Shown here: positions 5,112 to 19,762 of the stretch, piece after piece
Numbering within the stretch: the stretch's first letter is position 1
Layout: each line of letters begins with the position of its first letter
Translations under genes and position numbers: made by a program
The notes under the pieces: model-generated
Databases searched by the model: none
Seen by the model: only the letters and a program-made list of their open reading frames with translations
What the model was told of the DNA's origin: nothing
Origin: Escherichia phage AnnaReinhart_Bas75
Sequence record: PQ850596.1
Length of the DNA: 43,870 nt
Reading direction: 5' to 3' (one strand)

Positions 5112-5138
5112 TTTTCACCTCCTGTTTAAGTTAACTGA

Positions 5139-5167
5139 ATAGTACCCTATTATATTGGGGTGTGCAA
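5139..5167 (-). promoter_or_regulatory. sigma70-like promoter TTGCAC-N17-TACTAT containing palindrome AATAG-N4-CTATT
   Basis: Read on minus strand: TTGCAC accccaatataataggg TACTAT, then AGGAGG RBS and ATG of 4908..5111. Near-identical to sites at 14262, 37025 and 38441. Confidence 0.6.
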
Positions 5168-5442
5168 ACTATTTATTTACGTATTCCAGTTATTCCACCG
5201 AATTGTAAATGTTGGAATAAACTATTCGAATAGTTGACTTTTCACTAAAAATATGATAAGCTCCACCTGAGCTTGTGAAATATGAACAAGCGACCGCGGC
5301 GCGGGCAGGTAACGGAGCGGGACGTAAGTCCTGAGTGTAGTTACGCTGACGCGTTCGGAAGGGCCATACTCTATTGCTTGTGTAAAAAGTAACAGGTTTA
5401 CTGAGATTACGCCGTTTCTATGTTTAAATGATAAGGACTAGC

Positions 5443-5468
5443 GCCCTGCTTTAAGGCAGGGCTTTACT
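5443..5468 (+). terminator. hairpin GCCCTGC-N-GCAGGGC followed by TTTACTT
   Basis: 7-bp stem with T-rich 3' flank, immediately upstream of the Rz RBS. Confidence 0.4.
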
Positions 5469-5486
5469 TATCGAGAAAGGAGAAAC

Positions 5487-5873
5487 ATGAATCTTAAAGC
5501 AACTGTCGTAGCAGGAGCATGTTTCATCATCCTGGTTTACGCACACGGCATCTACCAGTATCGCAGCGGATGGAACGAAGGCCGGGCTAATCTCGTTTCG
5601 CAGCAACAGCAGAAAGCACAGGCTGAGTTAGCGAAGAAAACACAACGGCAGCAGCAGGATGAATCGAAGGCCGCCGCCGCTGACAACGAAGGCAAGACGA
5701 AATCAGAGGTGATTACCCGTGAAGTCGTTAAGTACATTAAAACGCCTGGTCGCAGTGTGTGCGCTTTTGACCCTGAGCGCGTGCAGCTCAAGTCCCGCGC
5801 CGTCGCAAACGCCAACTCCATCCCCGGATACGACGATGATGCAGCCGCCGTGCAAACTGGCACCGCCAAGTAG
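5487..5873 (+). CDS. Rz: i-spanin (Rz-like inner membrane spanin)
   Basis: 128 aa; N-terminal transmembrane segment (VVAGACFIILVYAHGIY), then Gln/Ala/Lys-rich predicted coiled coil; contains an embedded out-of-frame lipoprotein ORF, the hallmark Rz/Rz1 arrangement. Confidence 0.6.
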   Translation: MNLKATVVAGACFIILVYAHGIYQYRSGWNEGRANLVSQQQQKAQAELAKKTQRQQQDESKAAAADNEGKTKSEVITREVVKYIKTPGRSVCAFDPERVQLKSRAVANANSIPGYDDDAAAVQTGTAK

Positions 5874-5982
5874 CGACGCCGACGAGGATTTGGCTATCGA
5901 CGTTCAGAACGCTGAATGTGTACGGCAACTGAGGCTGAAAGTGTTTATGTTGCAGGATTACGTGAGGAATATTCTGGAATAG
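5719..5982 (+). CDS. Rz1: o-spanin (Rz1-like outer membrane lipoprotein), overlapping the 3' end of Rz in another frame
   Basis: GTG start with GAGGTGA RBS; signal peptide ending in lipobox LSAC; Pro-rich mature region (SPAPSQTPTPSP...PPC), typical of Rz1. Confidence 0.55.
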   Translation: MKSLSTLKRLVAVCALLTLSACSSSPAPSQTPTPSPDTTMMQPPCKLAPPSSDADEDLAIDVQNAECVRQLRLKVFMLQDYVRNILE

Positions 5983-6769: not shown

Positions 6770-7818
6770 TGGCAATTACTACTATCGGCGACATCGTAAC
6801 TGGTAAAGAATCGGTAATCCTGTCCTACATGACAGAGGACCCGGTAGAGAAAACCGCGTTCTTCCAGTCCGGTATCCTTACCTCGACTCCGTATGCCGCC
6901 GCTATCGCAAACGGCCCGTCCAACAAAGCGGTCCTGCCGTACTGGAAAGCTATTGATACCTCTATCGAGCCGAACTACTCGAACGACGTATATCAGGACG
7001 TCGCCACCCCGCGTAACGTGCAAACCGGTGAGATGGATGTTCGCGTAGCTTACCTGAACGAAGGTTTTGGTCAGGCTGACCTGACGGTAGAACTGACCAG
7101 CCAGAATCCGCTGCAATCCGTGGCTTCCCGTCTGGATAACTTCTGGCAGCGTCAGGCACAACGCCGTCTTATTGCTACCGCGCTCGGTCTGTACAATGAC
7201 AACGTAGCGGCTACCGATGCATACCACGAGCAGAATGACATGGTGATCGACGTTTCCGCTACTATGGGCTTCGACTCCGGTGCGTTCATCGACGCTACCC
7301 AGACTATGGGTGACGCGCTGATGGGTAACGGCGGTGAAGTGCTGGGGGCTATCGCGATGCACAGCTTCGTTTATGCGCAGGCTCGTAAGCAGCAGCTTAT
7401 CGACTTCATCCGTGATGCTGACAACAACACCATGTTCGCCACCTACCAGGGCTACCGTGTGATTGTTGACGACAGCATGACCGTAGTCGGTACTGGCGGC
7501 AGCCGTAAGTTCATCTCCATCATCTTCGGCAACGGCGCTATCGGTTACGGTGAAGGTTCTCCGTCAAACCCGCTGGAATACGAGCGCGAAGCGTCTCGCG
7601 GCAACGGCGGTGGCGTCGAAACCCTGTGGACCCGTAAGACCTGGTTGCTGCATCCGTTTGGTTACAGCTTCACCAGCGCAGTAATCACTGGCAACGGCAC
7701 CGAGACTATCGCCCGCTCTGCTTCATGGCAGGACCTGGCGAACGCTTCCAACTGGAACCGCGTTGTTGAGCGTAAGCATGTACCGATTGCCTTCCTGGTA
7801 ACTGGTGTCGGGGCTTAA
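6769..7818 (+). CDS. major capsid protein
   Basis: 349-aa ORF after scaffold, start overlapping scaffold stop; followed by a strong UUCG-loop hairpin terminator, as expected for the most abundant virion protein. Confidence 0.75.
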   Translation: MAITTIGDIVTGKESVILSYMTEDPVEKTAFFQSGILTSTPYAAAIANGPSNKAVLPYWKAIDTSIEPNYSNDVYQDVATPRNVQTGEMDVRVAYLNEGFGQADLTVELTSQNPLQSVASRLDNFWQRQAQRRLIATALGLYNDNVAATDAYHEQNDMVIDVSATMGFDSGAFIDATQTMGDALMGNGGEVLGAIAMHSFVYAQARKQQLIDFIRDADNNTMFATYQGYRVIVDDSMTVVGTGGSRKFISIIFGNGAIGYGEGSPSNPLEYEREASRGNGGGVETLWTRKTWLLHPFGYSFTSAVITGNGTETIARSASWQDLANASNWNRVVERKHVPIAFLVTGVGA

Positions 7819-7833
7819 GGTTAAGATATAATC

Positions 7834-7860
7834 GAGAGGGACTTCGGTCCCTCTTTTCAT
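7834..7860 (+). terminator. hairpin GAGAGGGAC-ttcg-GTCCCTCT followed by TTTCATTT (terminator/attenuator after capsid gene)
   Basis: 9-bp stem with one mismatch, UUCG tetraloop, T-rich tail. Confidence 0.6.
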
Positions 7861-7877
7861 TTACTAAGAGGTAAATT

Positions 7878-8177
7878 ATGGCTAAGACCGGAAAAGGCTT
7901 GCCTCGCAGCCTTCAGAATGTCGACTTCGGCGACTTTGACATCCCAGTAACGCCGGCTACTACCGGCGTAGTTGGTGGGGTTAAAAAGTCAGCTACTGTA
8001 GCTGCCCCCGCGGCCATTACCGCTGCCGCCGGGTCGCAGTCCGCTGCGGACCCGACTAAGCCCGAGTTCGATGCCCTTGTAGCCGAGTACAACAAACTTC
8101 GAACTGATGTAACCGCGCTGCGCACTACCGTAGCAAATCTGTTGACTGCGCTTAAAAATGCAGGAACTGTAAGCTAA
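7878..8177 (+). CDS. hypothetical structural protein (99 aa, Ala-rich)
   Basis: AAGAGG RBS before ATG; located between capsid and Ig-like genes. Confidence 0.55.
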   Translation: MAKTGKGLPRSLQNVDFGDFDIPVTPATTGVVGGVKKSATVAAPAAITAAAGSQSAADPTKPEFDALVAEYNKLRTDVTALRTTVANLLTALKNAGTVS

Positions 8178-8189
8178 AGGAGCTTAAAA

Positions 8190-8540
8190 ATGGTTGATGT
8201 AATCAAACGTCGTATTACTGGTGTTTCTGATGATTCTCCTGCCGATGGTCAGGTTGAAATCGATATGGCGAATATCTCGCCCGCATCTTTTTCTACCGCA
8301 CTTGCCGCTACCACTACCAAGTCTACGGGGCAGACGATGACTCTTACCGTAGCCGTAACTGGCGGTCTGGCCCCGTACACATACCAGTGGTACAAAGATA
8401 ACAACGCTATCCCAGGCGCTACCGCCGCCACCTACGAGAAAACTTCGCTCGCTACTACCGATTCCGGTACGTATAAAGTGGTTGTCCACGATGTATATGG
8501 TAATATTATCTCCAGCAGCACCGTAGCAACTGTATCTTAA
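8190..8540 (+). CDS. Ig-like domain protein (possible capsid decoration protein)
   Basis: 116 aa; motif MTLTVAVTGGLAPYTYQWYKDNNAI...GTYKVVVHD matches Ig-like domain signature and parallels 4417..4878. Confidence 0.55.
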   Translation: MVDVIKRRITGVSDDSPADGQVEIDMANISPASFSTALAATTTKSTGQTMTLTVAVTGGLAPYTYQWYKDNNAIPGATAATYEKTSLATTDSGTYKVVVHDVYGNIISSSTVATVS

Positions 8541-9889: not shown

Positions 9890-10020
9890 TGCGTAAAATA
9901 ATTAATATGTGGATTAACTCTGATTTTTTGTGGAAGTACGAATTTTTGGTATCAGTGTTTGCGCTGGTATCAACAACAGCTCTAATTATATTTTTAGCGG
10001 TTTGCGGGGAGTCAACATGA
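9889..10020 (+). CDS. small membrane protein (43 aa) encoded by an AT-rich insert
   Basis: ATG overlapping upstream stop (TAATG); single hydrophobic helix LVSVFALVSTTALIIFLAV; local GC clearly lower than flanks. Confidence 0.45.
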   Translation: MRKIINMWINSDFLWKYEFLVSVFALVSTTALIIFLAVCGEST

Positions 10021-10376
10021 GCACCGCTTTCAGCAAACGTATGCAGGGCGTGGGTACACGCCTGCTAACCAAATTCGGCAGCACAGTATCTCTGGTTCGC
10101 GCTGGCTCGAAAGTGTGGGATGAAGTTCTCGGTGAATACGTCTGGTCTGCGGATGAAGTGTTGCCGTTGAAGGCTGTTCCGGTTCCGGTAAACGCGGGAC
10201 TGGTAAACGGTACGACGATTCAGGCTGGCGACATGATTGTTAAAGCGGATTGCAGCGTCGTTCCGAAGATGGAAGACAAAGTGCAATTCGGTGGCGAGCA
10301 GTGGTCTGTCGTAGCCATTGAGAAGAAGATGGTTAACGATGATGTCGTGGCATACTTTATTCAGGTGAGAAAATGA
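10017..10376 (+). CDS. hypothetical head-tail joining protein (119 aa)
   Basis: ATG 10017 overlaps upstream stop (ATGA); position between connector and tail-completion genes. Confidence 0.5.
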   Translation: MSTAFSKRMQGVGTRLLTKFGSTVSLVRAGSKVWDEVLGEYVWSADEVLPLKAVPVPVNAGLVNGTTIQAGDMIVKADCSVVPKMEDKVQFGGEQWSVVAIEKKMVNDDVVAYFIQVRK

Positions 10377-10873
10377 GTTTCGCGCTTGATGTCTCTAAGT
10401 TCGTGGAAAAGGCGAAGAAGAACCCTGAGAAGGTGATGCGTCAGGTGTCTATCAAGCTGTTTTCCGCTATTATAAAGGCGAGTCCGGTGGATACTGGCCG
10501 CTTTCGTATGAACTGGATGGCCTCTGGCGGTACTCCTGCTTCCGGTACGAGTCGCGGTACCGACCCTAGCGGGGCGAACGCGATAAGCGCTATGGTTTCT
10601 ACGGTGTCAGGTTTACCCGACTGGAGCGAGTTTACCCTGACAAATAACCTGCCGTATGCGGAAGTTATAGAGTTCGGGGGTTACGCTACTGGCTTCCACG
10701 GCCCTAAGCGCCCTTCTAACTTAGGCTCTAAATTTGTTGGCCCATTGAGGCCGAAAGCGCCCAGCAGAACAACCACAGACGGATATTCCCTTCAGGCTCC
10801 GCAAGGTGTTGTCCGGGTTAACGTTCAGCGATTCAATAAACTGCTCGAAGAAGAAGCGAGGAAGTATAAATAA
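10373..10873 (+). CDS. tail completion protein, HK97 gp10-like
   Basis: 166 aa; motif SPVDTGRFRMNW matches the conserved PVDTG-R signature I recall for the HK97 gp10 family. Confidence 0.55.
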   Translation: MSFALDVSKFVEKAKKNPEKVMRQVSIKLFSAIIKASPVDTGRFRMNWMASGGTPASGTSRGTDPSGANAISAMVSTVSGLPDWSEFTLTNNLPYAEVIEFGGYATGFHGPKRPSNLGSKFVGPLRPKAPSRTTTDGYSLQAPQGVVRVNVQRFNKLLEEEARKYK

Positions 10874-11286
10874 TGGGCTACTTTGAGGACTTAACAAAAG
10901 CGTTCGATGTTCCGCTGGTAGCCTTCGGAACCGCCAACGGCATCAAGGTTGCGCTTGAAAACATCGACGCGCCGACGTCAACCGATACGCCGTATCTGGC
11001 GAGTTACATGCTACTGGCAGATACCGAGCAGGCGGATTTGTTCTTCACTGAGCAACGCTCTGGTATTTATCAGGTAGACATTAACTACGCATCGGTGAAA
11101 GGTAGCGCGCCAATCAATAAAATGGCAGACTTACTTAACACGGCGTTTAAAGCAGGTAAGTCATTTTCGCGTAACGACATCTGCGCCGAGGTTCAATCGG
11201 TTAGCCTGGGGCCGCTGATTGTAGAAAACGGATGGGCCAAACGACCATTGTCAATTAACTTTATTGCATTCACCAAGAGGCTGTGA
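10873..11286 (+). CDS. putative tail terminator / tail completion protein (137 aa)
   Basis: Position immediately upstream of the major tail protein gene; start overlaps previous stop. Confidence 0.45.
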   Translation: MGYFEDLTKAFDVPLVAFGTANGIKVALENIDAPTSTDTPYLASYMLLADTEQADLFFTEQRSGIYQVDINYASVKGSAPINKMADLLNTAFKAGKSFSRNDICAEVQSVSLGPLIVENGWAKRPLSINFIAFTKRL

Positions 11287-11288
11287 AT

Positions 11289-12455
11289 ATGGCTACAACT
11301 CCTTTTAAGGGCGCGAATACCGCGCAATTCTATGTGGCGGAAACTACCCCTGGCGTAACACCGACTAACCCGGTATGGTCGCCGTTGCGTAACACGGGCG
11401 GCGTTCCCGCTGTAACCCGCGATGCACTGACTTCCAACGAACTGGACGGCAGCCGTGAAACTACATCCATCCGAACCGGTAACAAGCAGGTTAGCGGGGA
11501 GTATGCCATCGAACTTAGCTCTCGTAGCCAGGATGATTTCCTTGCGGGAGCGATGACTTCTACGTGGCAAGCTGGGGTAGAGATTACTGGCGCCGGAATT
11601 ACGGTCGCCCCAGCAGGTAAAACATTCACCCGCGCTGCCGGTAGCTTCATTACTGACGGTGTAGAAGTTGGCGACCTTATTGCGTTCACCGACTTAACCG
11701 GCGACAACGCAAAACCGTTTATCGTGACCGCGGTTTCCGCTCTGGTAGTTACGGGCGCAGGTATTCAACACACGCTGACAGCAGAGACAGTAACCACTGA
11801 CGCAAAAACTGGCGACAAGCTGGAAACCGGTAACGCGTGTAAGACGTTCTCCATCCTGACGTGGTTCAAGGGCCAGTGTGGTAACCCGGACGCGTACATG
11901 CTGACCAAAGGTGTGGAAATCTCTGGCTTTACCGTAGAGCAGGCGGTTAACGCCATGGTCACCGGCAGCTTCCCGTTCATCGGCCTGAGTCAGGAGATTC
12001 TTACCGCGCCGCCGTCTGGCTCTGATTTCTCTCAGGTTACGTTCACCGATGAGCCGTTCTCGTCGGTAGATGTGTCGGTGTTCGATGGCTCCACGCCGTT
12101 GCGTTGCGATACTCTCACCATCACCAACGACAACGGAGCTTCCGCGCAGTTCGAACTCGGTAACAGTAGCGTGGCGTTCGTCGAACGTGGACGCGCAGCT
12201 AACACATTCTCTATCTCTGGCAAGCTGTACGACATGGCGATGATTCAGAAGTTTATCAACGAGCAGCAGGTAGAGATTAACTCTATTCTGGCAGGGGTAA
12301 ACGGGGCTATGTCTTTCAGTTTGAAACGTGCAGAGCTTACGGCGGTTACACCTGAGATTGGTGGGCCTGAGTCAATCACTCAGTCCATTGAAGGCCAGGC
12401 TACCGGCAATCAGTACCAGTCGTCTATCGTAATTCAACGTATCACCTACGCATAA
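11289..12455 (+). CDS. major tail protein
   Basis: 389 aa, Thr/Gly/Ala-rich; AAGAGG RBS; followed by strong terminator; located upstream of chaperone-tape measure genes. Confidence 0.6.
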   Translation: MATTPFKGANTAQFYVAETTPGVTPTNPVWSPLRNTGGVPAVTRDALTSNELDGSRETTSIRTGNKQVSGEYAIELSSRSQDDFLAGAMTSTWQAGVEITGAGITVAPAGKTFTRAAGSFITDGVEVGDLIAFTDLTGDNAKPFIVTAVSALVVTGAGIQHTLTAETVTTDAKTGDKLETGNACKTFSILTWFKGQCGNPDAYMLTKGVEISGFTVEQAVNAMVTGSFPFIGLSQEILTAPPSGSDFSQVTFTDEPFSSVDVSVFDGSTPLRCDTLTITNDNGASAQFELGNSSVAFVERGRAANTFSISGKLYDMAMIQKFINEQQVEINSILAGVNGAMSFSLKRAELTAVTPEIGGPESITQSIEGQATGNQYQSSIVIQRITYA

Positions 12456-12483: not shown

Positions 12484-12714
12484 TCACTCATCAATATTAC
12501 TTCGATACTCCCGTAACTTCTCCAGACTTTCAATTGCTTCTGCTAAGTCGGTTCCGGTGTCCTTATGCCCGCGAAGACCCATGCACAATAACTTCTTCAA
12601 TGCGTGCTGTAGTGCGGGGTCACGGATGTCGAAGGCACGGAGAACATCGTAAACGTCTACGGTCATAGTGCTGCCGTGAGTGTTTGTCATTGTTCGGTTG
12701 TATTTTGAAGTCAT
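12484..12714 (-). CDS. hypothetical protein (76 aa), last gene of minus-strand insert
   Basis: Start overlaps stop of phosphoesterase gene; no recognisable motif. Confidence 0.5.
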   Translation of the reverse strand: MTSKYNRTMTNTHGSTMTVDVYDVLRAFDIRDPALQHALKKLLCMGLRGHKDTGTDLAEAIESLEKLREYRSNIDE

Positions 12715-13841
12715 CCCAGCATCTCCGGTGAAATAGTTAAACGTGCGACCTCGCCATATTCGGCGCTATAAGTAATTACATTTGCACTACGGCCTGACAT
12801 CCACCCGCCGCGGGAGGCATAGGCGTCTTTAGCCGCTAAGGTGCGGTGTTGCTCAACAATCATGTTACGGCTTTCTACAATCTTCTGGTGGTGCAGGTGG
12901 CCTACGTGGGCGTAGCTATAGACACTCTCACCGAACGCTTTGCGGAATTTGGCAATCATAACCGGTTCGATAGCATCGAATCGCGCCTTATGCCCGTGGT
13001 GAAAGAACAACGTCGTTTTTCCGTGTTGCACCATCTTGTAAACATCCGGCGACGTATCGACAATCACTCGGCTGTCGTTCGAATATAAAACTGTGAACAT
13101 TTCAGCCAGCCATACAGAGCCTACAGGGTCATGGTTCCCCTGTACGATAAGCAAGCGAACATTTTTATGTTTAACCAGTGCCATATCTACAACACGGCGT
13201 ACCATACGAATCATGTAGCGGACGAGTTTCTGGTAGCGAGTGTCTGCGTCCAACACGTGACGCGACTCAGGTGTAACGGCATCCAGACTATCGAAGTGCG
13301 CGAAATCACCCAGCAGGTTAATAACTCCTGTTCCTGCATCCGGTGCTTTCTGAAACGCCGCGTCGAACCAACGAGAGAACAGGTCTTCCGCAATCTTTAT
13401 ATCCCAGTCGTCGCCGCTCTCGTCGGCCCAGGCAAGCATACCGAGATGGAAATCAGATACCGTGTAAAGATTGAGTAGCTTGTCGTCGCGTTTGGCTCGA
13501 GTCGCTTTAGCCGGCGCAACTGGCGTAATCTCTGACTTCATGCCTTCAATCACGGCTTTCATCAACTCGACCTGACGTTCAGCGTCGGTGTCTGTCTTAA
13601 CCCATTGCAACTTAGTATTGCCGAACTCGTCTACCAGAGACGACGTCCCTTTAATCTTGTAGCCGTCTGGGACAAGGTGGCTAACGTCACGCCCGTGGCC
13701 TACACCTTTCTTAGCCAGCTTCGCTTTACGGATACGAATAACTCGGTCTGAGATGCCGTATTTACGGGCGATGTCTACATTCTTCATCCCGGCGTTCAAT
13801 TCTTCCTGTAACTGTTCGTCGGTTATTTTCTTCTGGGCCAT
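12711..13841 (-). CDS. HTH domain fused to calcineurin-like metallophosphoesterase
   Basis: 376 aa; N-terminal HTH-like segment (KNVDIARKYGISDRVIRIRKAKL); C-terminal phosphoesterase motifs in order: SDFHLG (D-x-H), GDFAHFD (GD-x-x-D), GNHD, then His-rich HHGH and GHLHH. Confidence 0.7.
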   Translation of the reverse strand: MAQKKITDEQLQEELNAGMKNVDIARKYGISDRVIRIRKAKLAKKGVGHGRDVSHLVPDGYKIKGTSSLVDEFGNTKLQWVKTDTDAERQVELMKAVIEGMKSEITPVAPAKATRAKRDDKLLNLYTVSDFHLGMLAWADESGDDWDIKIAEDLFSRWFDAAFQKAPDAGTGVINLLGDFAHFDSLDAVTPESRHVLDADTRYQKLVRYMIRMVRRVVDMALVKHKNVRLLIVQGNHDPVGSVWLAEMFTVLYSNDSRVIVDTSPDVYKMVQHGKTTLFFHHGHKARFDAIEPVMIAKFRKAFGESVYSYAHVGHLHHQKIVESRNMIVEQHRTLAAKDAYASRGGWMSGRSANVITYSAEYGEVARLTISPEMLG

Positions 13842-13906
13842 GCTTACTTCCTCGTGTTTAGGATTTGTCCTATTTAACCACAGTGGATTCCTTTAAATAA
13901 AGGCAA

Positions 13907-14233
13907 CTATTTACTTTCTGCGCCTATCGCCCACCCTGTCATTACCATTTGCAGACGGGTGGCTGTCAGTAGGCTATAGAAAGCATCTCCGTTTTTCTCT
14001 ACCGAACGTATCACTGTGTAGGTTACGGCCTGCGGGGGTAGGCCCGATTTACCAACCTCCACGGCGGCCTCACACTCGCGAACTGTAGAGTCCTTGAACG
14101 CCTTTACAATAGTAGGGTCGGCTTTATCAAGCACACCAGAAGTCATAAGAACAGATTCACTAAATACCTGTTCGCACGGGGCTCCAAAAGTAGCAAAAGA
14201 CATAAAACCCAGAGCTAGTACTAATTTACGCAT
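13907..14233 (-). CDS. secreted/periplasmic small protein (108 aa) with N-terminal signal peptide
   Basis: MRKLVLALGFMSFATFGA signal-peptide-like N-terminus; GAGGA RBS; first gene downstream of early-type promoter 14262..14290. Confidence 0.55.
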   Translation of the reverse strand: MRKLVLALGFMSFATFGAPCEQVFSESVLMTSGVLDKADPTIVKAFKDSTVRECEAAVEVGKSGLPPQAVTYTVIRSVEKNGDAFYSLLTATRLQMVMTGWAIGAESK

Positions 14234-14397: not shown

Positions 14398-14814
14398 ATG
14401 AAACTTTCTGATTTCTATTTTGCCGACCGCCACGCCGCCGGTACTAAAATGCCTATCCTTCTGCCCAGTGGTAAAGATTCCGGTGAATGGTTGCAGGTCA
14501 TCGGCCCCGATTGTGACGCTGGTGTTCGTGCGGGCCGTGCCTACACAACGGCAATTCGACGCCTTACGGAAGAACTTGCGCCATTAGATAAAGAGTGCGA
14601 GGCGCTGAATAACTGGGCGCGCTATAATGATGAGAAGGGCTGGCGGGTGATGGACCTGAACAAGCAGCTTGCCGTGGAAATCGTCACCGGTTGGTCATTC
14701 GACGAACCATTCAGCAAAGAGGCGCTTGCTAACCTGTTCGACCAGTACAGTGGGTTGGCAGAGGCCGTAGTTAAGCATCACACCGATAGCCGTGAGAAAC
14801 TCTCGGAAAAGTAA
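14398..14814 (+). CDS. tail assembly chaperone (gpG-like)
   Basis: 138-aa ORF directly upstream of tape measure; downstream ORF in -1 frame overlaps its end (see frameshift feature). Confidence 0.65.
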   Translation: MKLSDFYFADRHAAGTKMPILLPSGKDSGEWLQVIGPDCDAGVRAGRAYTTAIRRLTEELAPLDKECEALNNWARYNDEKGWRVMDLNKQLAVEIVTGWSFDEPFSKEALANLFDQYSGLAEAVVKHHTDSREKLSEK

Positions 14815-15176
14815 AAGCGCTGTATGAATTTGCGCAATGGTGCTTTGTCGACCGCCACAAACGTAAGCAATTCGACGACATCGCGGCGGGCCACCAGGCG
14901 GCTTTGATTGCAATGGGCGTGATTAAAGAACCGCAGATGAAAGAAGCGACGGGGCCGGAATGCCCCGTTTCTCTTATCGACGTGTTCGAGAAATACCGTG
15001 CCATTAAATTCCTACAGCGCGAAACAGATGATACTATCGTTATAATCCCGCGCGATGCGCTCAAATGGCAAGATTTGGTAGCGTTTCGTGATGTCGCCGG
15101 TTACGGCATAAGTTTGTTCGAAGCCGAGGTTATCATGGGCTTAGACGGAATATTTGAGGGCAGAGAAGATGGCTGA
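14398..15176 (+). CDS. tail assembly chaperone frameshift fusion (gpGT-like), requires -1 shift near 14805..14811
   Basis: -1 frame opens at 14796 (after TGA 14793-14795) and runs to 15176; zero frame stops at 14812; candidate slippery heptamer G GAA AAG at 14805-14811. Fusion ends where tape measure starts. Confidence 0.55.
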
Positions 15177-17481
15177 TACGGCTTCCCTAATTGCCAGAGT
15201 AAAAACAGAAGGCGCTGATGTAGCCGCTAAACAGCTTGACGCTATGGCGGCATCCGCAGACCGTGCGGACACATCCGTAAACAAACTAACGCCGGATGTT
15301 AATAAAGTAAACTCCGCTACGTCTAAAGCGGCTTCTGACGGTTTCGCTAAATTCCGTAACGCCGCCGGGCAGGTAGGCTTCCAGGTGCAGGACATGGTCG
15401 TCCAGTTGCAGTCCGGCACGTCTGCATTCGTAGCAATCGGGCAACAAGGCTCTCAGCTTGCGGGTGCTTTCGGCCCTGGTGGTGCGGTGCTTGGGGCTGT
15501 AATTGCTCTTGCGTCAGCTATCGGTGGCGTCTTGTACAAATCGCTAACAGAGGCGGAGGGGAGTTCAAAAGACCTCGAAGCCGCGCAGAAACAGTTAAAA
15601 GACACCTTCCAGCAAACAGCATCCGGCTCTCTCGAACTGACAGACGGCCTTATCCAGCTTACCCAAATCAGCCGAGAAGCGGCGGAGACTCAGCTCGCTC
15701 TGGCTAAGGCTAACGCAGACCTTATCGCGCAGCAAACAGCTAAAGCCGTTCGAGAGGACGCAGAATCATGGGAGACATGGAAAGCCTCCACAGCATCGGC
15801 TATTAGCCAGTATGATGCGCTGGTTTCTAAGGGTGCTGATGTAGGCGACACGTTAGAAAAACTCGGTGGCACTTACGAGGGTAATATCGTAGGCGTCAAC
15901 ATGCTGGCACAGAATATAGCAGAGCTTAGTAGTAAGTTCGGGGTTAACCGTGACCAGGCGCTGGAGATGATAGCGGCACAGAGCGCGTTTAATAAAGAGC
16001 CGACCGCTGAGAATGCCCGCCGCATCGCCGATGTGTTTACCGACTGGCTTGGTAACACTAAGCAGTTGAACCCGGAACTTATCCGCCTGACAGACAACGC
16101 CAACAAAAACGCCACGGCGCTGGAAAACGCAGAGAAGTCGGCAAACGCGGCGGCGGAGGCTCAAAAGAACCTCGGTCGTAACGTTAACTCAACCACGCAG
16201 AGATTCCAGGAACAGAACGAAGCTATCGTCAAGAATCAGCAAATCGCCATCTTAAGCGACCGTGAGCGTATCAGGGCACAAGCTGAACTGGATAAGCAGG
16301 CGTTCGCTAAACGTGAAGCTGTCACCAAAGAACAGATAGCCGCGTATAACGCTGCCCGTGACGCGGAAGCGCAGCAAGACATAGCTCGCATTGACAAGAC
16401 CGAGAAAGAGAAGGCAGACCGCGAGGCTAAATCGAACGAGAAACGTCTGGCGGCGCAGGCCAAACGCGAAGAAACGGCGGCGCAACGTCAGAAAAAAGCG
16501 GCGGAAGATTTCCTCGCTACTGTCGACCGAACAACCGGAGACGAAATTTCTCGCATCACGGCGGCAGAAGAGCAGAAACTGGCGAAACTTGAAGAGTTTA
16601 ACCGCGCCGGAACAATAAGCCAGCAGCAGTACGAAAACGCCAAAACGCAGATTATGCTCACCGCCGAGCAGGCCCGACAGGAAGAACTGGATAAGAAAAG
16701 AAAAGAAGCCCAGGAAAAGCAGCAGAAAGGCGACGACTTCATGGCACAGATTATGGGCCAGAACGCTACTGAGCTTGAGCTTCTCGACATCCAGGAACAG
16801 CAGAAGCTGGCGGTCGCGGATAAGTATCGAGAGCAGGGGCTTATTAACGAGGAACAGTATCAGGCGGCACTTAACGCTATAAATGAGCAGTATGCTACGA
16901 AGCGCGCCGACGCTTTAGGTAATTCTTTCGGTGACATGGCGGCTAATGCTAAAACAGCATTTGGCGAGGCGTCCACCGCGTATAAAGCGTTTGCTATCGC
17001 ACAGGCAACTATCGCCACGTACACATCGGCTATCGAGGCATATAAGTCAACGGCTGCCATCCCTGTTGTCGGCCCATTCCTGGCGCCGGTTGCTGCGGCT
17101 ACTGCCGTTGCCGCGGGGCTGGCTAATATCGCCAAAATCCGCTCGGCGCGTGAGCAGGGCGGGCAGTTATCCGCCGGGCAGGCTTCTACTATCGCAGAAC
17201 GCGGTAAACCAGAAGTTATTATGCCTGCTGGTGCATCGCGAGTACGCACTGCACAGCAGATGAAAGAAATTATGGGGCAAAACGGGTCTTCTTCCGGCCC
17301 ATCTAATGTTACCATCGTAAACAACACGAGTTCTCAAATCGGCAACGTATCCACTGAGCAAGATGATGAAGGCCGTTTGCGTATCATCATAGAAGAGCAA
17401 GTTGCTGCATCTTTGCAGAACAGCAACAGCAAGATTAGCAAGGCCCGCAAAGCCACAAGAAATGCGCCGGGGTTTAAATAA
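15169..17481 (+). CDS. tail tape measure protein
   Basis: 770 aa from ATG 15169 (ORF opens at TTG 15154); Ala/Gln/Glu-rich coiled-coil character; hydrophobic Gly/Ala-rich segment (AFGPGGAVLGAVIALASAIGG); largest gene of the tail block. Confidence 0.8.
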   Translation: MADTASLIARVKTEGADVAAKQLDAMAASADRADTSVNKLTPDVNKVNSATSKAASDGFAKFRNAAGQVGFQVQDMVVQLQSGTSAFVAIGQQGSQLAGAFGPGGAVLGAVIALASAIGGVLYKSLTEAEGSSKDLEAAQKQLKDTFQQTASGSLELTDGLIQLTQISREAAETQLALAKANADLIAQQTAKAVREDAESWETWKASTASAISQYDALVSKGADVGDTLEKLGGTYEGNIVGVNMLAQNIAELSSKFGVNRDQALEMIAAQSAFNKEPTAENARRIADVFTDWLGNTKQLNPELIRLTDNANKNATALENAEKSANAAAEAQKNLGRNVNSTTQRFQEQNEAIVKNQQIAILSDRERIRAQAELDKQAFAKREAVTKEQIAAYNAARDAEAQQDIARIDKTEKEKADREAKSNEKRLAAQAKREETAAQRQKKAAEDFLATVDRTTGDEISRITAAEEQKLAKLEEFNRAGTISQQQYENAKTQIMLTAEQARQEELDKKRKEAQEKQQKGDDFMAQIMGQNATELELLDIQEQQKLAVADKYREQGLINEEQYQAALNAINEQYATKRADALGNSFGDMAANAKTAFGEASTAYKAFAIAQATIATYTSAIEAYKSTAAIPVVGPFLAPVAAATAVAAGLANIAKIRSAREQGGQLSAGQASTIAERGKPEVIMPAGASRVRTAQQMKEIMGQNGSSSGPSNVTIVNNTSSQIGNVSTEQDDEGRLRIIIEEQVAASLQNSNSKISKARKATRNAPGFK

Positions 17482-18881
17482 TGAGCGACTTATATTTCCC
17501 ACGTAGCCTTAAGCCAATTGTATCGAAAGGCTACTCAATGACCAGACGTAACAACGTCTGGAGTGTAGATTTAGCTGGTGGCGGTGTACGTCAGGGGCGC
17601 GACACGTATTACGACGTGTTCCCTGTTAGCGTAACCCTGATTACATCCGCAATGGGGCGACAGGCGTTTCTGTCGTTCCTCGAAAAAGTAGACGGCGGTG
17701 CGTCAAGTTTCTGGATGGCGCACGACTTCGGCATGGGTATTCAGGATTACCAGGTAACAATCACGTCAACCATCGCAGAGTCCACCGAAGATGGTATTAA
17801 CTGGACAATTACTTTCACGGCAACCGCCGAGAAATCGCCGTTCCAGGACCTTGAGAACCAGTGCCTGATTAACAATCTGCCAGATTTGTACGGCTGTTAC
17901 GGGGATTGTCTGGGTAGTTTCCTGAAAATATACGCGAACTATGAGACGACGTTCCCTCGCATCTGGAGCAATGAAGGGCCTGCAGGATACCCGCCGATTA
18001 ACATGCTGGCATCTACGCTTGATAGCCGCATTGTTTACGATGGGCCACAGGTTTACTACATCAACCGCAACGGCAATCTTGTGCAGTCCGCCGCTAATGA
18101 ATGGCCTCTTACGTTTATTGATGGGGTTGCTGTCGGGCGTGTGCCGCCGGAAAAGGCGGCTATCAACGTGGTAGAACACTCTAACAACTTACTATCTACA
18201 TCATTTTCACGCACCAGAACAAAAACAACGGCGAGTTCTTTGACGTTATTCCAAGAAACTTACGCCGCTAAATTAACCGCAACGTCGGTATCAGGGAACC
18301 ATTATATAAACCAGGCAGAGTCCCCAGAACAAGAAACAAGATACTCTATTAGTGCTATTATAAAAGCAGATGAGTACCAGTCATCCGCGGTAGCCATCGG
18401 CAACCGAAACGCTTTAGATAATTTCCAGTATGCCTATGTTGACTTAGCCTCTGGCTATTTGATATCAGGCGACACCTCAAGGTCGTTCGTAAGCAATCTT
18501 GGTGGTGGGTGGTATCACGTTTCAATGTCCGCGGACACTAACGACTCCGGCGGATTGATTTATTCGCAGATAAACATGTTGTCGCCGTCTAACTCCCTCA
18601 CCTTCACAGGGGATGATGTCAGCGGGTTCATTATAGCCCTAATCCAGATGGAGCCTTCAGAGTTTGCCTCATCCCCGATAGTAACCGAGGAGTCACCAGT
18701 AACCCGAACGACGGCATCCGCAAAAGTAACCATGAATGGCGCGACAAGCATTGACATTACCTACTCCGACGGCTCCGTGATAAACGTTCAGGCTGTTGAC
18801 GGTTACGCCTCCATACCCCAAGCGGATTCGGCGTGGGGTAGTAAGTACATCACTCGTATTGATTTTAATGTGGACGGTTAA
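17481..18881 (+). CDS. distal tail protein: lambda gpM-like N-terminal domain with ~340-aa C-terminal extension
   Basis: N-terminal region (VSVTLITSAMGRQAFLSFLEKVDGGASSFWMAHD) matches lambda gpM pattern V-TL...FLE..GG..SF-W from memory; rest is Ser/Thr/Asn/Tyr-rich. Confidence 0.5.
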   Translation: MSDLYFPRSLKPIVSKGYSMTRRNNVWSVDLAGGGVRQGRDTYYDVFPVSVTLITSAMGRQAFLSFLEKVDGGASSFWMAHDFGMGIQDYQVTITSTIAESTEDGINWTITFTATAEKSPFQDLENQCLINNLPDLYGCYGDCLGSFLKIYANYETTFPRIWSNEGPAGYPPINMLASTLDSRIVYDGPQVYYINRNGNLVQSAANEWPLTFIDGVAVGRVPPEKAAINVVEHSNNLLSTSFSRTRTKTTASSLTLFQETYAAKLTATSVSGNHYINQAESPEQETRYSISAIIKADEYQSSAVAIGNRNALDNFQYAYVDLASGYLISGDTSRSFVSNLGGGWYHVSMSADTNDSGGLIYSQINMLSPSNSLTFTGDDVSGFIIALIQMEPSEFASSPIVTEESPVTRTTASAKVTMNGATSIDITYSDGSVINVQAVDGYASIPQADSAWGSKYITRIDFNVDG

Positions 18882-18884
18882 TTT

Positions 18885-19400
18885 ATGAGCCAGGAATCAG
18901 TAGAAGCAGCCTATCGCCGTAAGCTGGCCTCAAATCCAGACGGCGAGATGGACTACATCACGTTGCAAATCAGCCACCCGTTGCTGTCAAAGACGTACTA
19001 TCTTGTGCGCGGGCTACAGGAACTTACGGCAACACTGGAGACAGGCGAAACTATCACGTTCGAACCTACCCCGATGGAGGCGTCGGGGGCCGCTAACAAC
19101 AGTGATATGGACCAGACGACTACGTTTACTTTACCGGATATTCTCAATCAACTTGACGATGAGATGGATAAAATCCCTATGAGTAACACCGAGTTGCCGA
19201 AGTTCGTCTTCCGTCGTTACGTCAGCACAGACCTGTCTTATCCGGCTGACGGTCCTGTCATGTATGAGTTGCAGGCCATCAACCAGGAGAAGGGCGAGTT
19301 CTCCGCGGATGTTGGTACACCTATGCTGAACCAGCGAAGCACTGGTATACTGATGACACCTAAAGAGATACCGTTATTACGCGGCCTGTTGACCACATGA
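18885..19400 (+). CDS. putative minor tail protein (171 aa, gpL-position)
   Basis: Gene order after Dit-like gene; no motif recognised. Confidence 0.4.
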   Translation: MSQESVEAAYRRKLASNPDGEMDYITLQISHPLLSKTYYLVRGLQELTATLETGETITFEPTPMEASGAANNSDMDQTTTFTLPDILNQLDDEMDKIPMSNTELPKFVFRRYVSTDLSYPADGPVMYELQAINQEKGEFSADVGTPMLNQRSTGILMTPKEIPLLRGLLTT

Positions 19401-19762
19401 ATATTAACGACTACACGGGCATACCTTACGACTTTCGCAAGCGCAATTGCTGGCATCACGTGCGCATTGTCCGCGCGGATGCCGGGTTAGAAACCCCAGC
19501 GTTCGACGTTGCAAGCCCAACGGCGATTAACGAAGCGTTTGACGAAGGGCATCGCAACACGAAGGGGCTTACAAAAATTGATAAGCCTGAAAACTTCTGT
19601 GCGGTTCTTATGGGGTATCGCCGTGGCGGTCGTATCGTGTGGCACGCGGGAGTTTACTTCGACGGGATGGTGAGTCATTGCGAGCTTGCGTCCCGTCAGG
19701 TACGGCTTGACAGGCTGGCGGATCTCAGAGACACGTACACGGAGATTGAATTTTGGCGATAA
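19397..19762 (+). CDS. putative tail assembly protein with Cys/His pair (possible NlpC/P60-like, gpK-position)
   Basis: 121 aa; conserved-looking Cys (RNCWHHV) and His (WHAGVY); position equivalent to lambda K. Tentative. Confidence 0.35.
   Translation: MNINDYTGIPYDFRKRNCWHHVRIVRADAGLETPAFDVASPTAINEAFDEGHRNTKGLTKIDKPENFCAVLMGYRRGGRIVWHAGVYFDGMVSHCELASRQVRLDRLADLRDTYTEIEFWR

Follow-up and report, generated by a model that had tools for sequence, protein, structure and literature searches.

The gene at positions 17481 to 18881 of Escherichia phage AnnaReinhart_Bas75 (sequence record PQ850596.1; the 43,870 nucleotides analysed are referred to here as the window) encodes a protein of 466 amino acids that is the distal tail protein (Dit, also DTP) of a Kagunavirus (Guernseyvirinae). 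It is of the type represented by gp17 of phage Sf11, built on a different ring-domain backbone. Residues 163 to 466 constitute an optional module, in which a conserved frame carries a hypervariable domain that resembles carbohydrate-binding modules (CBMs) and that sequence comparison assigns to a family of head spike fibres. Taken together, the data indicate that the module is probably an accessory adhesin that binds glycans at the tail tip.

Identification of the distal tail protein and its optional module

The genes for the tape measure protein, the 466-amino-acid protein, a DUF1833 protein, a protein of 121 amino acids, a gpJ-like protein and the tailspike follow each other in this order, which places the gene in the position of a Dit gene. 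The order in Sf11 (gp18-gp17-gp16-...-gp14-gp13) is the same. The start of the open reading frame shares one base with the TAA stop codon of the tape measure gene (775 amino acids; TAATG), and the two genes are translationally coupled. The counterpart in the BASEL phage VerenaMeyer (Bas76), with 96% nucleotide identity to the gene, is named 'hypothetical protein'.

A search of PDB sequences with phmmer identified Sf11 gp17 (457 amino acids; PDB entry 9OCC, chain C) as a match over residues 153 to 464 (E=2e-86), and a profile match to the same protein gave E=2.3e-141. The C-terminal appendage of Sf11 gp17, about 300 amino acids long, is homologous to the window protein over its full length. In the work of Subramanian, Dover and Parent (J Virol 2025, PDB 9OCC), cryo-electron microscopy and mass spectrometry identified Sf11 gp17 as the distal tail protein, present in six copies in a ring (PMC12724387). 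There, gp17 spans the mismatch between 6-fold and 3-fold symmetry and docks the tailspikes, a helix at residues ~129 to 152 forming a bundle with the three helices at the N-terminus of each tailspike trimer, and its 'large extra appendage', to which no function was assigned, extends outward from the tail (PMC12724387). The gpJ-like protein and the tailspike of the window are homologous to Sf11 gp14 and gp13; therefore, the tail tips match as a whole. By analogy with Sf11, the window protein would form a hexameric ring between the tube and the hub.

The N-terminal domain is tied to that of Sf11 gp17 because of synteny, the shared C-terminal module and a moderate fold match. A moderately confident AlphaFold2 model of this domain matched Sf11 gp17 (chains 9occ_C/D) in Foldseek with E=4.8e-4 and template modelling scores of 0.41 to 0.46. 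Proof from sequence that the two N-terminal domains are homologous was not obtained, as a profile built without Sf11-type sequences revealed no match in the PDB; an earlier strong profile match to Sf11 was an artefact of Sf11-type sequences included in that profile.

A preliminary description of the window had called the protein gpM-like, after the hexameric distal tail protein of lambda (PMC10721106), and roughly four times as long as gpM. The reading frame is real, and its product has 4.3 times the 109 amino acids of gpM. The proposed role is upheld by the gene order, the homology of the tail tip to that of Sf11 and the fold match of the N-terminal domain, but membership of the gpM family is not. 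The gpM pattern is indeed present as a motif, residues 48 to 79 (PVSVTLITSAMGRQAFLSFLEKVDGGASSFWM) aligning with gpM residues 43 to 73 at 39% identity over 31 columns, but the similarity is not significant. The search with the Pfam family Phage_min_tail (PF05939), which had been proposed as a check, covered the full protein, its halves, residues 1 to 163 and nine N-domain variants and gave no match at E<=10; lambda gpM, used as a positive control, reached 135.5 bits (1.2e-39), with a gathering threshold of 39 bits.

Several comparisons speak against the assignment of the N-terminal part. Alignment of the N-terminal region with lambda gpM by hhalign reached a probability of 2% (E=0.025), which is not significant, and the N-terminal domains of the Kagunavirus protein and of Sf11 gp17 aligned with a probability of 0.3%, which does not support a link at the sequence level. 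The segment following the ring domain, here termed the adaptor, cannot be aligned with the Sf11 helix apart from an 'LP.(L/V)Y' anchor. On the Pfam and hhalign results, gpM family membership was rejected, and the likeness to gpM is retained as a functional analogy.

Natural variants revealed that the module is optional. Of 41 related IMG/VR loci, 19 have the long form and 21 a short Dit of 164 to 166 amino acids that terminates shortly behind 'TFPRIW' (residue 162); the remaining locus, L016, has an intermediate of 363 amino acids. Since the short natural forms end right after this motif, residues ~121 to 162 were assigned to the core protein. The preliminary description had placed an extension of about 340 amino acids after residue ~125; the extension exists, but it starts at residue 163 and comprises about 304 amino acids. 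The same junction recurs on an unrelated backbone, that of Skatevirus, in which the Dit of Bas81 has 157 amino acids and those of Bas77 to Bas80 have 457, with the difference arising at the equivalent point. Across 50,697 phage records, the N-terminal domain was found in 498, 361 of them Salmonella phages, and the full module in only 71, each from an Escherichia or Shigella phage.

The module also occurs without a Dit. A search of 1.84 billion cluster representatives yielded 1,676 relatives, and standalone proteins of 290 to 330 amino acids, named 'phage head spike fiber domain-containing protein' by NCBI, match the stem, the variable domain and the C-terminus together. A scan for the genomic context of these standalone homologues, made with a single protein, gave another Dit-fused copy and distant alphaproteobacterial matches. 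In Rahnella prophages, a protein of 552 amino acids (P0132) carries the module at the N-terminus of a lambda-type gpL (NF048003 at residues 102 to 292, TIGR01600 at residues 358 to 548); thus, the same putative adhesin module is mounted on a different tail-tip protein.

Domain layout and relatives of the variable domain

An alignment of 33 homologues and two AlphaFold2 models gave a layout of five parts: ring domain, adaptor, stem, hypervariable domain and C-terminal beta region (Table 1). The model of the ring domain contains strands at residues 26-31, 47-55, 77-82, 87-94, 99-102 and 108-118 and a helix at residues 57-71, with predicted local distance difference test (pLDDT) values of ~50 to 78. 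This secondary structure fits a tube-protein-like beta-sandwich with a flanking helix, at moderate pLDDT and without sequence-level support; the domain has no Pfam match. The adaptor is a candidate tailspike-docking element, by analogy with the helix of Sf11 gp17, and the tailspike of the window is presumed to be its docking partner. The N-terminus of this tailspike (residues 1 to 52) also differs from that of the Sf11 tailspike.

Within the adaptor (residues 128 to 143, positions 17862 to 17909), Cys128 and Cys139, and usually 143, show little or no variation among Dits of the Kagunavirus/Jerseyvirus type, whether short or long. Dits of the Sf11/Skatevirus type lack these cysteines, which might make a disulfide bridge or bind a metal in the putative docking segment for the tailspike.

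The stem motif is retained in standalone homologues of ~300 amino acids, and the C-terminal beta region (residues 406 to 466) is conserved in the standalone homologues as well. The extension had been described beforehand as rich in serine, threonine, asparagine and tyrosine, and this was borne out: the four residues make up 33.1% of residues 126 to 466, compared to 20.8% in the other long open reading frames of the window. In residues 225 to 405, the fraction is 36.5%, with serine at 16.6%. The possibility that the extension is a disordered linker only was ruled out by pLDDT values of 84 to 97 across ~170 residues of the AlphaFold2 model.

Comparison of the variable domain with NCBIfam revealed a match of residues 224 to 410 to positions 3 to 181 of the 182 positions of NF048003.1 (GTA_spike_fiber), with 87.7 bits (E=1.3e-24) at a curated cut-off of 36 bits. 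Profiles of the module matched Rcc01080, the head spike fibre of the gene transfer agent RcGTA, with E=6.8e-26 and 2.5e-34. Judged by these profile comparisons, the variable domain is a full-length member of the family and homologous to Rcc01080. This fibre is flexible and binds capsular polysaccharide (PMC10218006; PMC7296036); the tagged protein bound 100% of wild-type cells compared to 4% of cells of a capsule-less mutant (PMC10218006). A distant copy of the domain was found in lateral tail fibre proteins of Vequintavirinae, and the head turret of HFTV1 is among the structural neighbours. The predicted beta-sandwich can be superposed on CBMs of the beta-jelly-roll type (CBM4/6/16/22-like), and none of the Pfam CBM families matches the protein. 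In the literature searched, no paper links a Dit appendage to the head spike fibre family, and the Sf11 paper does not mention such a link either.

Exchange of the variable domain and proposed function of the module

At a threshold of 70% identity, the variable domain comprises at least 29 alleles among the top matches and loci. Sliding comparison with close Kagunavirus relatives revealed nucleotide identities of 85 to 100% in the flanks and of ~50 to 60% over the variable domain. Against Skatevirus Bas79, the pattern was reversed, with 88 to 100% from the end of the stem through the variable domain and C-terminus and ~55% elsewhere. Such hypervariability, number of alleles and exchange as a cassette are typical of receptor binders.

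The allele of the window is present in 16 of the 50,697 records, a set that lacks the Bas75 record itself, so that the O16 set described here is incomplete. The Kagunavirus members are Bas70-74, Bas76, NTEC3 (two records), SCS92, XY2, 590B and KMB35, and the Skatevirus members are Bas77-80. All ten BASEL phages in this set depend on the O16 O-antigen (PMC11990801), and each of the 16 records encodes an O16-type tailspike domain, of which there are two kinds sharing only ~20% identity. This co-occurrence of the allele with O16-type tailspikes is suggestive, not conclusive.

Based on these data, we consider it probable that the protein combines a Kagunavirus Dit with a fused, hypervariable, CBM-like accessory adhesin. 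By analogy with Sf11, six copies would form a ring at the junction of tail tube and trimeric hub, and the helical segment at residues ~121 to 162 would anchor six tailspike trimers. The conserved frame, made of the stem and the C-terminal beta region, displays the CBM-like domain, and six such domains projecting from the tail tip may reversibly bind a cell-surface polysaccharide, be it O-antigen, capsule or another glycan. Glycan binding of this kind, which is likely, could raise avidity or help to orient the tip while the tailspikes perform the enzymatic work. The module would act as an auxiliary adhesin, not as an essential receptor-binding protein. Its conserved frame also offers homologous sequence through which the variable domain can be swapped as a cassette, inside one phage genus or from one to another.

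A number of observations weigh against this interpretation. A CBM-like fold is in itself no proof of sugar binding. AlphaFold2 was confident for the variable domain only, and in two runs residues 163 to 226 remained under a pLDDT of 50, giving no confident model of the stem. In the intermediate form (L016, positions 10001-11089), most of the variable domain has been lost in frame, with the stem and the C-terminus kept. Ten of the 16 records with the allele of the window come from one host strain, which makes sampling bias likely. DUEC01 combines the second O16-type tailspike (98% identity) with another allele, and Bas81 infects in an O16-dependent manner with a short Dit without the module. 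Among dereplicated loci, one of seven pairs with the same allele shared the tailspike domain (permutation p=0.22), which is no significant coupling, and the same tailspike was found with different alleles (L002/L005 versus L010/L028). As a separate observation, L016 and L013, the latter with a full-length Dit, share 95% identity in their tailspikes. A one-to-one co-variation of allele and tailspike receptor-binding domain was rejected after dereplication and on the explicit counter-examples.

The same data bear on the role of O16. It seems unlikely to us that the variable domain is the primary, specificity-determining O-antigen receptor-binding domain, with an O16-specific allele in the window and a host range determined jointly with the tailspike. 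Such a role would fit the presence of O16-type tailspikes of two unrelated kinds, in two genera, in 16 of 16 records with the allele, the O16 dependence of the ten BASEL members (PMC11990801) and the finding that, of 17 records combining a long Dit with an O16-type tailspike, just one has another allele (naive Fisher p 5e-15). However, the records are not independent, since they reduce to about three backbone/tailspike combinations and include ten isolates from one host. DUEC01 is a counter-example, Bas81 infects via O16 without the module, and the dereplicated loci show no general coupling. In addition, Bas70-73 and Bas74-76 all have the allele and differ in their sensitivity to O16 glucosylation, which tracks the tailspike type and not the Dit allele. 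The data are better explained by an independently reassorting accessory adhesin than by a strict O-antigen determinant.

With still less probability, the extension is a structural brace or spacer that positions the tailspike trimers or bridges the symmetry mismatch and contacts the tailspike rather than the host. Sf11 gp17 bridges this mismatch and docks the tailspikes (PMC12724387), and the stem (residues 163 to 224) is near-invariant yet poorly predicted as a monomer, as expected of an interface. However, one allele occurs with tailspike receptor-binding domains that are ~20% identical, and near-identical tailspikes occur with alleles that are ~31% identical; these pairings argue against a domain that needs to fit a particular tailspike. 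Short forms without the module carry homologous tailspikes, the entire module including the stem exists standalone and fused to gpL, and in the Sf11 map the appendage extends away from the tail. Finally, it is very improbable that the module is a mobile decoration domain, spread by recombination as a passenger that is mostly neutral or of slight benefit and has no role on standard hosts, and that might instead bind environmental matrices such as mucus or biofilm: it is often missing in close relatives and once deleted in frame, phages without it infect the same host, and the HFTV1 head turret is among its structural neighbours, but its frame is strongly conserved even across genera, open reading frames are kept over at least 29 alleles, discrete cassette exchange with hypervariability is the usual sign of selection on a binding surface, and homologues are found among tail fibres and baseplate wedges and in a fibre that binds capsule.

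The accessory adhesin can be given a more specific form, which we put forward tentatively and regard as rather doubtful. Phages of Kagunavirus and Skatevirus, for which the tailspike is at present the one receptor-binding protein described, might have on their Dit an additional determinant of host range whose exchange does not depend on the tailspike. Its cassette would bind a specific glycan, for the allele of the window O16 or a glycan that co-occurs with it, and the same adhesin would be used on gene transfer agent capsids, Dit, gpL and baseplate wedges.

Exchange was also observed among the tailspikes themselves. The receptor-binding domains of the tailspikes of Skatevirus Bas77-80 (L042-L045) and Kagunavirus Bas70, Bas71 and Bas73 (L046, L047, L050) share 95 to 96% protein identity, but their N-terminal anchors are only ~30% identical; therefore, the tailspike domain has been exchanged between the genera, in parallel to the Dit cassette. 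The tailspike of Bas72 has 98% nucleotide identity to the same receptor-binding type. Tailspike exchange in general was noted in the BASEL paper (PMC11990801). In Bas80 (L045, positions 7346-8221, reverse strand) and DUEC01 (L057, positions 5135-5881, reverse strand), the tape measure and Dit genes are separated by an inserted reverse open reading frame, for which the Bas80 annotation is endonuclease, and the usual gene overlap is broken. The insert is possibly a homing element close to a hot spot of recombination.

Neighbouring genes and comparison with known systems

The genes adjacent to the Dit gene are listed in Table 1. The product of the 121-amino-acid gene gave no Pfam, NlpC/P60 or JAB match; lambda gpK, the product at the equivalent position, does match NLPC_P60. 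The tailspike gene of the window has 99.8% nucleotide identity to the O16-type tailspike of Bas76, and Bas74-76 are O16 dependent (PMC11990801).

Table 1. Position and supporting evidence of the distal tail protein gene, its five parts and the adjacent tail genes in the window
Feature	Position	Strand	Remarks
Tape measure protein gene	15154..17481	+	phrog_1538 at 2.9e-194
Distal tail protein gene	17481..18881	+	466 amino acids plus stop, ATG start
N-terminal ring (tube-like) domain, residues 1-~120	17481..17840	+	AlphaFold2, Foldseek, phrog_384 1.5e-37
Adaptor, residues ~121-162	17841..17966	+	predicted helices 124-131 and 133-152 (AlphaFold2, low pLDDT); nearly invariant residues; kept in short forms
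Conserved 'stem', residues 163-224 (PPINLLASTLDSRIVY...GRVPPE)	17967..18152	+	near-invariant across Kagunavirus, Skatevirus and Sf11
Hypervariable GTA_spike_fiber / CBM-like beta-sandwich, residues 225-405	18153..18695	+	pLDDT 84-97
Conserved C-terminal beta region, residues 406-466 (SAKV.MNGATSIDITYSDG...WGSKYITRIDFNVDG)	18696..18878	+	invariant columns; pLDDT 55-79
DUF1833 minor tail protein	18885..19400	+	PF08875 7.5e-17, phrog_396 2.1e-51; position of Sf11 baseplate hub protein 1 / lambda gpL
121-amino-acid minor tail protein gene	19397..19762	+	overlaps both neighbours; phrog_329 'minor tail protein' 9.6e-12, partial; position of lambda gpK
gpJ-like hub / central tip protein, 855 amino acids	19753..22320	+	phrog_469 2.4e-249; Sf11 gp14 (9occ_E) E=4e-26
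Tailspike, 726 amino acids	22333..24513	+	Tail_spike_N 1.3e-13; Sf11 gp13 (9occ_G) E=4.5e-12 over residues 53-160

Further upstream, three open reading frames on the reverse strand (positions 12484-14233; 76, 376 and 108 amino acids) interrupt the tail module, separating the tube gene (11283-12455) from the gene for the tail assembly chaperone (14398-14814). The product of 376 amino acids is annotated in relatives as a DNA repair exonuclease or calcineurin-like phosphoesterase. At the site of these reverse open reading frames, NTEC3 has an additional HNH homing endonuclease. The tail tube protein has 390 amino acids, of which residues 10 to 373 match the 266-position Phage_tube_2 profile; this implies ~100 residues beyond Phage_tube_2, perhaps a decoration or insertion domain.

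Distal tail proteins of this type are already known: they include Sf11 gp17, evolved Dits with CBMs (PMC10688798) and the insertions of T5 pb9 and RcGTA g12. The present analysis adds the family assignment of the appendage and the evidence for an optional, portable cassette with a conserved frame. It also offers a concrete candidate, open to testing, for another element of host recognition in phages that are currently described with a single receptor-binding protein. Kagunaviruses and their relatives are common phages of E. coli under consideration for use in therapy and as synthetic-biology chassis, and their host range is currently ascribed to the tailspike alone (PMC11990801). If the module binds glycans, prediction and engineering of host range would have to weigh two exchangeable cassettes instead of one, and the unexplained Sf11 appendage would gain a function. 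If it is accessory or neutral, the finding is an ordinary example of modular tail-tip evolution. The short and long natural forms, the precise junction after Trp162 and the conserved recombination flanks make the experiment straightforward.

Compared with lambda gpM, the window protein has the same role, the same position just after the tape measure gene and a local motif resemblance; there is no significant sequence relationship, gpM has 109 amino acids without adaptor or appendage, and neighbouring lambda genes belong to other families (Phage_tail_L where the window has DUF1833). RcGTA Rcc01080 (ghsB; PDB 6TB9) likewise presents a flexible, outward-facing, beta-rich domain, but its N-terminus anchors it to a pentameric base on the capsid and not to the tail, and it has no clear counterpart of the stem and C-terminal frame seen in the phage module. 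The baseplate wedge (triplex) proteins gp46 of Pseudomonas phage Pa193 and gp45 of E217 (PDB 9B45, 8ENV) belong to contractile-tail baseplates and have another N-terminal architecture.

The evolved Dits of siphophages that have Gram-positive hosts, such as the skunavirus evoDit, which promotes adsorption to exopolysaccharide-bearing hosts (PMC10688798), also combine a Dit with an optional domain of carbohydrate-binding type. T5 pb9 and RcGTA g12 carry sugar-binding insertion domains (PMC7296036). In evolved Dits, T5 pb9 and RcGTA g12, the extra domain is inserted in a galectin-like or OB-fold C-terminal domain, whereas in the Dit of the window a complete portable module is appended after the putative tailspike-docking segment, without a galectin domain. 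The 'evolved Dit' architecture, with a CBM inside a galectin-like domain, is therefore not that of the window protein, whose short forms consist of ring and adaptor only. Sf11 gp17, which is itself among the loci compared here (L029), has a ring domain and adaptor of a different sequence type (~21% identical) and a different variable-domain allele. It occupies the same gene position, is of similar length (457 compared to 466 amino acids) and has a nearly identical stem and C-terminus.

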